Source of the DNA: Promethearchaeota archaeon
GTDB lineage: Archaea; Asgardarchaeota; Lokiarchaeia; Sigyniarchaeales; SOKP01
DNA: 64,000 nt
Reading direction: 5' to 3'
Assembly: GCA_016840085.1 (NCBI GenBank)
Contig: JAEOTA010000004.1
Coordinates: 96,001 to 160,000 of the forward strand
Part shown: piece after piece, positions 9,077 through 24,719 of the stretch
How the letters are laid out: each line of letters begins with the position of its first letter
How positions within the stretch are numbered: the first letter of the stretch is position 1
Program-made: the position numbers and the translations under genes
Notes under the pieces: model-generated
The model's input: only the letters and a program-made list of their open reading frames with translations
Databases searched by the model: none
Told to the model about the DNA's origin: nothing

Positions 9077-9325
9077 TTACTTTTGTTCCCATGGCATACA
9101 GAAAAATCCCTTTTCTAATTCGTATTTTGAGAACAATCCGCAACCGAAACAACTACAACCCTTATTTTTCACTTGATCTCTGGGTTTAGTTGTTTGACCT
9201 CTTGAACAAAATAGGGCATGCGGCTCAAATTCATTGAGTTGATTTGGTTTGAATGAAGGACAAGGTCCACAGAATTTTCTGCATTCATTCATTGACTCTT
9301 CAGTATCTGGTACTGGTTTTGGCAT
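9077..9325 (-). CDS. Small Cys-rich protein, DUF2769-like
   Basis: Pattern CxxxCxxCPS...LFCSRG...CSCxGCxLF...Y.L..GFFC. Confidence 0.7.
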   Translation of the reverse strand: MPKPVPDTEESMNECRKFCGPCPSFKPNQLNEFEPHALFCSRGQTTKPRDQVKNKGCSCFGCGLFSKYELEKGFFCMPWEQK

Positions 9326-9496: not shown

Positions 9497-9883
9497 TTAT
9501 ATTAATTCTTGATTTAATAAATCGAAATATGAATCAATTTGTTCTTTTACAATGTCATAATGAGTAAATTTACCTTTTTTCCATCCTCTAATTAATCCTG
9601 CATTTTCGAGGATTTTTAAATGATGTGATATTGATGGTTGAGATTCATCCAAGACAGCTTCTAATTCGCACACGCATCGATCTTTTTCTCTTAAGATGTT
9701 TATTATCATAAGACGCTTTATATTTGATAATGCATTCAAAAACGTAATTAAATCTTCAAAATGGGTATCTTGAATTAATCCATCCCCTAGTTCACGTAAT
9801 TTTTTGAAGTGAAGATCTGGATTCTTAACATCTTCACATTTTATCAATTTAGCCTTAATTTCTTCCTCATGCTCGATATTCAT
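9497..9883 (-). CDS. arsR: ArsR/SmtB family transcriptional regulator
   Basis: RCVCELEAVLDESQPSISHHLKILENAGLI is a classic ArsR box with CxC. Divergent from acr3. Confidence 0.9.
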   Translation of the reverse strand: MNIEHEEEIKAKLIKCEDVKNPDLHFKKLRELGDGLIQDTHFEDLITFLNALSNIKRLMIINILREKDRCVCELEAVLDESQPSISHHLKILENAGLIRGWKKGKFTHYDIVKEQIDSYFDLLNQELI

Positions 9884-10048
9884 TTAGAACACTATTCAAT
9901 ATTTAAATTTTTAATTATTCAATAATTATAAAGATAAACAAATTTATATTAGTTTATTCAAATCAATAAACTTTTATTTGAATAAAAATTTTATTATTTA
10001 AGATTGCACATAAATTTCTAAAAATTAACAGATAAAGATTGAAATATC

Positions 10049-11071
10049 ATGAGTGAAGAGGAAGGTAAAACTATCAGCTTTTTCGATAAGTTTCTACCAT
10101 TATGGGTGGCGCTTTGTATCTTTATTGGAATTATTTTTTCTTTGATTATCCCCGGAATAAGTGAAGCTATTAACTCTTTTAGCATTGGGCAGATTTCCAT
10201 ACCAATTGGTATTTGCTTATTTTTAATGATGTATCCTGCAATGTTGAATCTACAAGTTTCAGAATTAAAAAAATTAGGAAAAAATCCTAAACCTATAATA
10301 CTAACAATCGTATCTAATTGGTTAATTGCTCCATTTATAGGATTACTTATGGCCCGCATATTTTTACAAGGTTATGAGCAGTTGATAGTAGCAATTATTT
10401 TATTATCTAGTTCTCCGTGTACTGCAATGGTTTTAGTATGGGGGTGGATGGCAAAAGGTAACCAAGAGCAAAATGTGATGAATACAAGCCTTAACACAAT
10501 AACAATAATATTTGGCTATGTTCCGATGGTAACTTTACTTACAGGGATTCAAAATATACCTATAGATTGGTTATTATTATTGATTTCGACATTAGTATTC
10601 ATAGGGCTTCCATTATTATTTGGTATAATTAGTAAAAAATTGTTGATCCGCTCTAAAGGAGAGGATTGGTTCAACGAAACTTATCGTCCAATTGTTGGAA
10701 AGGTATCAATTATTGCTCTCTTAACAACTTTAGTTGTCCTTTTTTCATTGAATGGAGATGTGCTGATAAATAATCCCGATTTATTATTATTAGTATCAAT
10801 TCCTCTCTTAGTTGGGTTTGGTATTGTCGTTGGATATAATATATTGATTACAAAACTCACTAAATTGAAATACCGAGAAGCCATTATTACAACAATCATC
10901 GGATCTTCAAGTCATTTTGAAATTGCTATTGCCACAGCTATTGCAATCTATGGGATCGGTTCAGTTGCGGCTTTAGGAACAACAATGGGGTTGTTTTGGG
11001 AGGTTCCAGTGATGCTTTCAATTGTCTATTTAGGGAGGTTTCTAAGAAAAAAGGGATTTTGGAAATCTTAA
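10049..11071 (+). CDS. acr3: Acr3 family arsenite efflux transporter
   Basis: FFDKFLPLWV, MMYPAM, SPCTAMVLVW, SSHFEIAIATA and EVPVML motifs; about 10 TM helices. Confidence 0.95.
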   Translation: MSEEEGKTISFFDKFLPLWVALCIFIGIIFSLIIPGISEAINSFSIGQISIPIGICLFLMMYPAMLNLQVSELKKLGKNPKPIILTIVSNWLIAPFIGLLMARIFLQGYEQLIVAIILLSSSPCTAMVLVWGWMAKGNQEQNVMNTSLNTITIIFGYVPMVTLLTGIQNIPIDWLLLLISTLVFIGLPLLFGIISKKLLIRSKGEDWFNETYRPIVGKVSIIALLTTLVVLFSLNGDVLINNPDLLLLVSIPLLVGFGIVVGYNILITKLTKLKYREAIITTIIGSSSHFEIAIATAIAIYGIGSVAALGTTMGLFWEVPVMLSIVYLGRFLRKKGFWKS

Positions 11072-11117
11072 TATTTTTAATTGTTAAAAAGTTTACAATT
11101 TTGGGGTGATTTAAAAA

Positions 11118-11588
11118 ATTAAGAATATCACGTTTAAGATAAGTATAAATTTGAGTGGTTTACAACAAGGTAAGGAATTTATTGTTCAAGTAAAAGACGA
11201 TGCTAATTTTGTTGAAACCTTAGTCATGGTTGATAAATATATATTTAAAAATCCACATGAGTCGATATTTCCTATATTTGAAGGTTATATTCATAATTAT
11301 TTACAACTCTTTTGGAATCCTGAAGAAAATAAAGTCTACGAGGATATAGGGCTAATGCCTTATGGTCCTGATGAAGAAGGTAATTTAAGGAGATTTATGC
11401 CAATTCGAGATGATATCAATTTTATATTATTTCCTGATAGTGTAATAGATTTACAACCAGATTCTGGATGTTGATGAGAAAAAGTGAGAAACCGATTAGA
11501 TATAGCCAAGTTTAAACATATCTTAAGAAAAAGATATGGAAAAGATAACGAAACATTTGCACATTACTTTAAATCTAACGAAAAATAA
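11118..11588 (+). CDS. Putative selenoprotein (beta-grasp/MoaD-ThiS-like domain + Cys-Sec-Sec + 36-aa tail); ORF track gives only 11151-11474
   Basis: GGGGTGA RBS followed by ATT at 11118 (or TTG at 11151). The frame reads ...QPDSGC-TGA-TGA-EKVRNRLDIAKFKHILRKRYGKDNETFAHYFKSNEK-TAA. A SECIS-like hairpin starts just after the TAA. Confidence 0.65.
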
Positions 11589-11590
11589 GA

Positions 11591-11634
11591 ATTGGATGAG
11601 ATCTTTTAATAAATGTTAGTAAAAGATTGACGAT
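11591..11634 (+). ncRNA. SECIS element, eukaryote/Lokiarchaeota type (3' UTR)
   Basis: ATGA core (11596-99); G.U pair plus stem ATCTTTTA (11601-08) / TAAAAGAT (11620-27); apical AAA (11611-13) 11 nt after the core; 3' GA (11629-30); short lower helix ATTG/CGAT giving K-turn geometry. Confidence 0.75.
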
Positions 11635-11700
11635 AGGATTGTTTCCTATGATTTAATAATTATATCAGAATTAAAAAACTTAAACAATTTAAAATTAAAA

Positions 11701-24287: not shown

Positions 24288-24719
24288 TTAATTCTTTTTT
24301 TTTGGTCTAATTAGGATAATATGAATAGAAACTGCGACAGCTATACAAATTAACAAAATTTGGACCCATAATAAATCCATTAGAAATAAAATTGAGATGG
24401 CAATCGTTATCCATAACAATAGCAATGTGATTACTTTAATTTTTAATGGCATTCCTTTACCTTCCTTATAATTTCTAATGTAAGATCCAAGTATCTTATT
24501 GTTTAATAGCCATCTATTAAATTTTTTTGATGATTTGGCAAAAGCAGCTGAAGCAAGTAGCAAAAAAGGCGTTGTGGGAAGGATTGGTAAAACAATGCCT
24601 ATTATTCCTAAAATTAGCGATATAAAACCTCCTAAGAAAATTAAACGCTTAACAAATCTTTTTTCCTGAACATCCTCATTTTCGTTAGCTTTTTGCTTAC
24701 TTTCTTTGTTATTTTTCAT
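24288..24719 (-). CDS. YbaN/DUF454 family membrane protein
   Basis: LGIIGIVLPILPTTPFLLLA. Confidence 0.9.
   Translation of the reverse strand: MKNNKESKQKANENEDVQEKRFVKRLIFLGGFISLILGIIGIVLPILPTTPFLLLASAAFAKSSKKFNRWLLNNKILGSYIRNYKEGKGMPLKIKVITLLLLWITIAISILFLMDLLWVQILLICIAVAVSIHIILIRPKKKN

Follow-up and report, generated by a model that had tools for sequence, protein, structure and literature searches.

Two adjacent selenocysteines on a predicted ubiquitin-like carrier: an apparently unpublished selenoprotein family of Lokiarchaeia and its possible role beside Acr3

What lies immediately downstream of the arsenite efflux gene acr3 in this Lokiarchaeial genome, and does its coding sequence really end where gene callers end it? 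Within the window, by which we mean the whole stretch of 64,000 nucleotides analysed here, an ORF was called on the plus strand at 11151-11474, terminating at a TGA after Ser-Gly-Cys. The preliminary description of the window took this ORF to be the truncated front of a selenoprotein of ~156 aa carrying two adjacent selenocysteine (Sec) residues, and every sequence feature that it listed is present: the codons TGT (11469-71, Cys118), TGA (11472-74) and TGA (11475-77), together the putative Cys118-Sec119-Sec120 motif (11469..11477, + strand), are followed by a tail of 36 sense codons (11478..11585, + strand) and TAA (11586-88). Counted from an ATT at 11118, the read-through frame comprises 156 aa, and the CDS of what is called here the Sec-pair gene runs from this non-canonical start to the TAA (11118..11588, + strand). 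The anticipated truncation by gene callers is seen both in the ORF call and in the database, where entries for this protein are either cut at G-C or, under translation table 4, read G-C-W-W plus the tail.

The ATT at 11118 is probably the start of the gene, judging from the sequence, because an in-frame TAA sits two codons 5′ of it. A Shine-Dalgarno-like GGGGTGAT precedes it (11103..11110, + strand) and a motif of this kind is found in 77/113 homologues; at the homologous start position 65 genes have ATT, 18 have ATG and 6 have ATA. Starts found where other homologues have ATG include ATT, ATA, ATC, GTT and TTT, mostly behind a strong SD motif, and these non-canonical starts could be a translational control point of the family; a genome-wide test gave a slight excess at most of AUU starts behind SD motifs. 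Scans for sigma-70 promoters and terminators at the locus stayed at chance level, and Rfam, which is uninformative for Loki elements, reported there neither a SECIS nor any other family. The metatranscriptome contigs matching the gene come mostly from relatives at <90% identity, in small shares, and are too short to bridge genes.

Is the TGA pair a double stop or a pair of Sec codons? TGA-TGA occupies the site in 119/119 distinct homologous genes and is never replaced by TAA or TAG, whereas the terminal stops of these genes vary (TAA 78, TGA 31, TAG 8); a genuine stop would drift to TAA or TAG just as the terminal stops do. Over the 31 codons that follow the pair, in-frame stops are found in 0/112 genes, against 106-107/112 in each other frame. 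The pN/pS of the tail in frame is 0.27 in type A genes and 0.23 in type B genes (the motif types are described below), the same as in the core, and 0.9-1.3 out of frame; the pairwise values are not mutually independent, but the contrast between frames is large and points to codon-level selection on the tail in this frame only. A homologue search with the read-through protein, as suggested in the preliminary description, aligned TGA to TGA and found the tail conserved at the protein level: 51/61 relatives were matched, and almost all of the matches, even those at 20-25% identity, contained two TGA; nearly all full-length matches hold 2-3 internal TGA. The tail is also translated in homologues devoid of Sec, which is an independent sign that it belongs to the protein. 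With the pair constant and the tail under purifying selection, the proposed product of ~156 aa with two adjacent Sec is upheld.

A candidate lokiSECIS lies just behind the terminal stop (11596..11630, + strand), made up of ATGA (11596-99), G 11600, an 8-bp stem (11601-08/11620-27), T 11628 and GA (11629-30). The eight Watson-Crick pairs and one G-T pair (G 11600, T 11628) give a 9-bp stem, and the apical loop (11609-19) is 11 nt long, with an A-rich start and an AG end. By its published definition, a lokiSECIS opens with AUGA, continues through a stem of 9 bp to a loop of 11 nt, which has adenines on its 5′ side and G, mostly preceded by A, as its last base, and closes with GA (PMC4989117); the window element agrees with this definition at every point. 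A strict descriptor demanding 8/8 inner pairs has six matches on the two strands of the 4.68-Mb genome, four of them behind VhuD/MvhD genes, one behind the Sec-pair gene and one at a further candidate, and the PrxL SECIS is recovered once one mismatch is allowed. Using a looser descriptor, an element was detected ≤70 nt from the stop in 106/117 Sec-pair genes versus 57/3435 ordinary ORFs (1.7%), and compensatory changes are seen among homologues at stem pairs 1, 2 and 7. The hairpin that had been described as a kink-turn core with an 8-bp stem and an apical AAA is thus confirmed, and so is a second hairpin just 3′ of the SECIS core (11633..11649, + strand), kept in homologues with varying arm sequence. 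Both the Sec-pair family and the VhuD SECIS elements on C9, C44 and C82 carry such an additional small hairpin 3′ of the GA core, a feature absent from the published lokiSECIS description (PMC4989117).

Eleven of the 117 genes have no SECIS detected within 70 nt. Three of these are upstream members of tandem pairs, ending in TAA, and such genes can, by analogy with HdrA-VhuD, share the downstream SECIS; the other eight are unexplained by sharing and count in favour of the double-stop view, several of the SECIS-less genes having a divergent element or one further from the stop. The copy in G055 carries the motif P-M-C-U-U and an atypical SECIS. Separately, a second candidate selenoprotein was noted on G000 contig C82 (+ strand, ORF end ~24436, SECIS 24457-24491), with ~75-80 aa, one transmembrane stretch, the motif D-T-Q-U-P-S-A-C and a perfect lokiSECIS 20 nt past its stop.

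Could this genome insert Sec at all? The machinery whose presence the preliminary description proposed to check was found: SepSecS and two SelD genes score over the cut-off, each selD with one in-frame TGA and the two lying in tandem (G000 C78:5990-8158), and a SelB-like gene on the SepSecS contig (E 1e-69) and a PSTK-like gene (E 6e-40) score below it. ARAGORN and Rfam reported 7 tRNAs in the genome and no tRNA-Sec, missing an intron-bearing gene; a pattern search found a tRNA-Sec candidate between SelB and SepSecS, ~5 kb from SelB (G000 contig C32, ~24373-24530, + strand), with a UCA anticodon arm, a T-loop interrupted by an intron and an apparent second insertion in the D-arm region. The known Loki tRNA-Sec has a T-loop intron and is encoded ~6 kb away from EFsec, on the other strand (PMC4989117), and the candidate agrees with it in the intron and in the closeness to SelB.

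Because several separate lines support recoding, we are close to certain, on sequence evidence, that the Sec-pair gene is a real, unannotated selenoprotein gene whose UGA pair is recoded as Sec. No homologue ends in TAA or TAG at the site, the Sec machinery is present and the hairpin is conserved, so none of the findings that the preliminary description named as fatal to itself has turned up. That TGA-TGA is a double stop with tail and hairpin kept for some other reason, or that UGA stands for another residue, is exceedingly improbable: the database forms ending at G-C have a plausible C-terminus and a short form may coexist if double UGA recoding is inefficient, but the pair does not drift, the tail is selected in one frame and translated in Sec-free homologues, and UGA ends many ordinary genes here, including the 31 Sec-pair genes with terminal TGA.

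How widespread is the family, and what in its motif is invariant? A profile search found it in 138/161 genomes of the class Lokiarchaeia, about 86%, which makes it near-core there; close homologues are labelled mostly Promethearchaeota/Lokiarchaeota, and in a phylum-wide draw the sole match from beyond the class was an ordinary MoaD/ThiS protein. The 119 genes fall into three motif types: type A, G-C-U-U (69 genes, all families of the class); type B, A-D-U-U-A (46 genes), with Sec at 118-119, shifted by one residue; and type C, U-G-U-U (4 genes). Position 119 is the only one that is always Sec across the three types, and the alignments put Cys at position 118 in type A and the Sec-free homologues, and Sec there in type B. 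The C-U-U core of the preliminary description consequently stands for type A and fails as an invariant, since 46/119 genes have D-U-U-A and 4 have U-G-U-U. The U-G-U-U paralogues (L115:4961-5456, L116:2616-3102, L117:4374-4860 and L118, minus strand), with three Sec in four residues, are often in tandem with a type A copy, and one is directly divergent from arsR.

The profile search also found the Sec-free homologues, from Bathyarchaeia where named, which HHalign joins to the Sec-pair family over the domain and the first tail helix (prob 99.8, E 1.3e-27). These single-Cys proteins of ~125-140 aa (G-G-C-I-S/T-E/D-W-E-E) share the residue Cys118, their only invariant Cys and the single Cys of 106/119, but differ from the Sec-pair protein in having no UGA, a shorter tail and, in the loci examined, no ars context: they sit by DUF1786, radical SAM or housekeeping genes. 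Opposite Sec119 and Sec120 they have Ile, Ser or Thr, not Cys. One Bathyarchaeia genome, searched for SepSecS, yielded a weak match of no diagnostic value. A few Loki-like members are also without the Sec pair (L154:1274-1747, that is P0095, and P0143 and P0164), with C-V-S or a deleted motif and the tail kept; P0095, with C-V-S and a full tail, adjoins a NifU-like gene. The tree of the family was a quick, midpoint-rooted one with long branches, and no direction of origin was drawn from it.

Sequence searches of Pfam and PDB with the Sec-pair protein were blank, and its fold has to be judged from models. The AlphaFold model, with Sec modelled as Cys, has a pLDDT of 90 and a pTM of 0.86 and shows five strands, one long helix and a helical tail (helices 120-124, 129-140 and 148-151); residues 1-114 (11118..11459, + strand; mean pLDDT 90) form a predicted beta-grasp domain like those of SAMP, CysO, Urm1 and MoaD. 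The best structural matches of the model are CysO, SAMP1, Urm1 and MoaD. Foldseek gives SAMP1 a probability of 0.99, but with an E of 5.7e-3; VIA gives middling Z scores of 7.0 for CysO and 6.8 for SAMP1, and 8.8 and 8.6, respectively, with a Sec-free homologue; HHalign links the family to a ThiS/MoaD protein with a probability of 91.5; ESM Atlas feature matches stay below 0.9 and offer ThiS and Urm1 as leads only. The scores are middling, but four methods agree on the predicted beta-grasp fold, as the preliminary description had supposed in speaking of a MoaD/ThiS/ubiquitin-type domain. The register of the Gly-Gly site can be refined: the HHalign alignment to the MoaD/ThiS protein ends with Gly117 on the residue preceding that protein's Gly-Gly, and residue 119 is the last one aligned in structural comparisons with MoaD, MOCS2A, Urm1 and one SAMP1; these end points together place Cys118-Sec119 at the Gly-Gly site. 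Cys118 is the sole Cys of the protein. What is common to the Sec-pair protein and SAMP1, CysO, MoaD and Urm1 is the beta-grasp whose last strand terminates in a reactive chalcogen; in contrast to them, it matches neither Pfam ThiS nor Urm1, has ~12% identity, and bears Cys-Sec and a helical tail in place of a terminal Gly-Gly.

What might such a protein do? The neighbourhood offers a clue. The gene acr3 (10049..11071, + strand; Pfam SBF; TIGR00832 E 9.6e-84, just below the cut-off) ends 46 nt before the Sec-pair gene on the same strand, the spacing given in the preliminary description, and arsR, with a C-V-C-E-L motif (9497..9883, - strand; Pfam HTH_5), diverges from it. Between the two lies a 14-nt inverted repeat, 93% complementary and in an AT-rich region (9953..9986), which is a candidate operator; its arms recur in L056, and inverted repeats upstream of other Sec-pair loci are inconsistent. 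The order here is thus a minimal arsR, acr3, selenoprotein, the usual order in the genus being arsR, acr3, a CAC-motif protein, the Sec-pair gene and a YdjM-type membrane gene. With the queries used, ArsC, the CAC protein and a methyltransferase-HgcA fusion were not found in this genome, which leaves the Sec-pair gene as the only small soluble partner downstream of acr3. A small, Cys-rich DUF2769 protein is encoded downstream of arsR (window 9077-9325, - strand) and also in several related ars loci.

Among well-flanked loci, acr3 lies within 5 kb in 19/22 of the genus and 22/32 of other genera in the same taxonomic family, and any ars gene nearby in 21/22 and 26/32, respectively, versus 2/13 (acr3) and 3/13 (any ars gene) in other families, most of whose genomes carry acr3 elsewhere. 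Counted together, acr3 or arsR is near the Sec-pair gene in 41/54 loci of the host's taxonomic family versus 2-3/13 elsewhere; since genomes with the ars linkage are kin, this synteny may reflect few events, and acr3 or arsR appears again near the gene in 3 loci of a second family. The arsenic role put forward in the preliminary description is in this respect well founded in the host's taxonomic family and weakly so in the others. Further neighbours at some loci are ArsC, an ArsM-like protein, the CAC-motif protein and DUF166, and, in other families, AOR with ferredoxin (3/20 loci), a CDF/cation-efflux gene (one genus) and unrelated genes. The gene acr3 is itself near-core in the class (54/61 genomes), and presence and absence of the two genes are weakly informative (of 61 genomes, 4 lack both, 6 have acr3 only and 3 the Sec-pair gene only); G048, G049, G052 and G054, of another family, have acr3 and no Sec-pair match. 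The CAC protein (L056:5659-5952 and ~45 other loci; 90-100 aa, C-A-C-E/Q-W, no Pfam/NCBIfam match) usually lies just upstream of the Sec-pair gene, is fused to an ArsM-like protein in L144 and is a candidate ArsD-like partner.

It is this ars operon context that leads us to favour an arsenic clamp. The ribosome would start at AUU 11118, and the 3′ lokiSECIS would recode two consecutive UGA as Sec. The product would be a beta-grasp of the SAMP/MoaD kind, with G-C-U-U closing its last strand and the helical tail coming after. The fold would expose a vicinal selenolate pair where sulfur carriers present a thiocarboxylate. In this genome the gene is probably co-transcribed with acr3 under ArsR. 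In the cytosol the protein would act as a clamp and buffer for trivalent arsenicals, either arsenite or methylarsenite, and hand them on to Acr3, an ArsD-like job done with selenium. The pair alone would suit a two-coordinate ligand such as methylarsenite, with Cys118 as a possible third donor in type A.

Known arsenic sites bear on this geometry. Described ArsR sites bind As(III) through three Cys, two of these sites combining a vicinal pair with a distant third residue, whereas SpArsR binds MAs(III) through a vicinal Cys pair alone (PMC13236881); from these geometries the conserved Sec pair would fit a two-coordinate ligand no less well than arsenite, three consecutive donors not being among those described (PMC13236881). 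The earlier appeal to vicinal Cys clusters as As(III) ligands holds for the pair; the third Cys of such sites is remote rather than consecutive. ArsD and the ArsR sites (AfArsR, CgArsR, SpArsR) resemble the Sec-pair protein in the vicinal chalcogen pair and the ars operon location and differ from it in fold, in sulfur rather than selenium and in the remote third Cys that it lacks; no ArsD domain was matched in it by Pfam with E ≤0.1. CC and CU motifs are a mark of heavy-metal proteins, and the bacterial CU-motif selenoproteins (SaoL, SaoB, SaoC, HgcA, MbdU, KCU-star; bioRxiv 10.1101/2022.07.06.499078; PMC13188914 Table 1) have in common with the Sec-pair protein the Cys-Sec dipeptide, database truncation at Cys and a heavy-metal context, whereas theirs are in-gene SECIS, other folds and bacterial hosts. 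Taken whole, the reading as a recoded Sec protein that would serve Acr3 as a selenolate clamp for trivalent arsenicals is tentative and falls somewhat short of probable.

Most characterised selenoproteins are oxidoreductases, and the motif could instead be a redox relay in which G-C-U(-U) cycles between selenol and selenenylsulfide or diselenide, regenerating the thiols of ArsC, ArsM or HgcAB or reducing pentavalent arsenicals for Acr3, much as the tail of mammalian thioredoxin reductase carries Gly-Cys-Sec-Gly. In favour of it, ArsC, MsrB (SelR), ferredoxins, DUF166, a thioredoxin-domain protein and a membrane protein of the DsbD type do occur as neighbours, and the query used detected no ArsC in this genome. 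Against it, no dedicated reductase is consistently linked. The protein has neither a thioredoxin fold nor CxxU spacing, and the register shift of the pair between types A and B is ill-suited to a fixed catalytic geometry. We regard such a relay as unlikely, though it fares best among the alternatives to the arsenic clamp.

Rather less likely still is a housekeeping carrier of chalcogen or metal derived from MoaD/SAMP ancestors, serving AOR, Fe-S assembly or selenium storage, with the ars linkage a later recruitment in one family. The near-core distribution would fit it, as would the fold closest to CysO, SAMP1 and MoaD, the ferredoxin and AOR beside the gene in the 3/20 loci outside the host's taxonomic family, the NifU next to a Sec-free Loki-like member and the DUF1786 or radical SAM genes beside single-Cys homologues. 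However, acr3 is near-core as well, so that a wide distribution is no argument against arsenic, and none of the at least 7 AOR-like genes of this genome lies beside the Sec-pair gene. Thiocarboxylate chemistry is excluded by the want of a free C-terminal Gly-Gly, and E1-type activation or conjugation is impossible since Sec119 is encoded and internal.

Within the Lokiarchaeia, some arsR-acr3 operons contain, beside the Sec-pair gene, a methyltransferase-HgcA-like fusion (NVWCAAR) and an HgcB-like ferredoxin (L124, L125, L127, L128, L130, L131, L136, L137, L139, L141, L147, L148, L151, L122, L117 and L063). It is conceivable, if improbable, that the Sec pair serves such an HgcAB-like system by binding Hg(II) or a methylated metal(loid) from the fusion: in other genera of the host's taxonomic family the CdhD/HgcA-like fusion (16/32) and the HgcB-like ferredoxin (14/32) lie just upstream, CU motifs occur in HgcA and SaoL, and hgcAB is under ArsR control in a bacterial methylator, but the fusion is at 1/22 loci of the genus and 0/13 of other families and was not found in this genome, and the HgcB match is below the cut-off (52.9 of 99 bits).

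Returning to the arsenic clamp, is the family new? Seven Asgard selenoprotein families have been listed with known families as queries (Huang 2024, PMC11227280), a 2016 study that also sought novel families in one metagenome reported none (PMC4989117), and a 2024 soil Asgard study has only known families. A 2026 review counts 119 prokaryotic families, 11 of them in archaea, none of which is a beta-grasp carrier or has a UU or CUU motif (PMC13188914). The Sec-pair family is absent from these Asgard and prokaryotic lists, in line with the initial impression that it was no known family, although, literature coverage being incomplete, an earlier report is possible, as are precedents for adjacent Sec, e.g. 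in animal SELENOP. Its recoding system is of a known kind: as in the Lokiarchaeal selenoproteins SelD, VhuU/FrhA, VhuD/FrhD, HdrA, PrxL, AhpF-N and DsbA-like (PMC4989117, PMC11227280), a 3′-UTR SECIS of the same geometry lies near the stop, the machinery is the same, several Sec may depend on one SECIS and tandem genes are able to share one. It differs from them in fold and motif, its Sec codons being directly adjacent, and with no Pfam family and a predicted beta-grasp fold it shows no homology to SelD, FrhA, FrhD, HdrA, PrxL, AhpF-N or DsbA. Family, fold and motif therefore appear to be new and unpublished. The broader reading, in which this is a class-wide eighth Asgard family, a ubiquitin-like carrier with Gly-Gly replaced by encoded adjacent Sec that would use selenium to clamp arsenic or methyl-metalloids on behalf of Acr3 and HgcAB-like enzymes, comes near to an even chance in our estimation.

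Searches can easily miss such a gene, which starts with AUU, carries two UGA in a row and, at two of its three sites, has no Cys counterpart among homologues. One more family would join the short archaeal list of 11, present in ~86% of the Lokiarchaeia genomes searched and, if true, about as prevalent in the class as the commonest known selenoprotein families. It would bring >100 new lokiSECIS sequences, roughly fourfold the 25 behind the original model, and offer a natural setting in which to ask whether the Asgard system, which lacks SBP2, can decode consecutive UGA from one SECIS. The family may also connect the use of selenium with arsenic and mercury chemistry in sediments.
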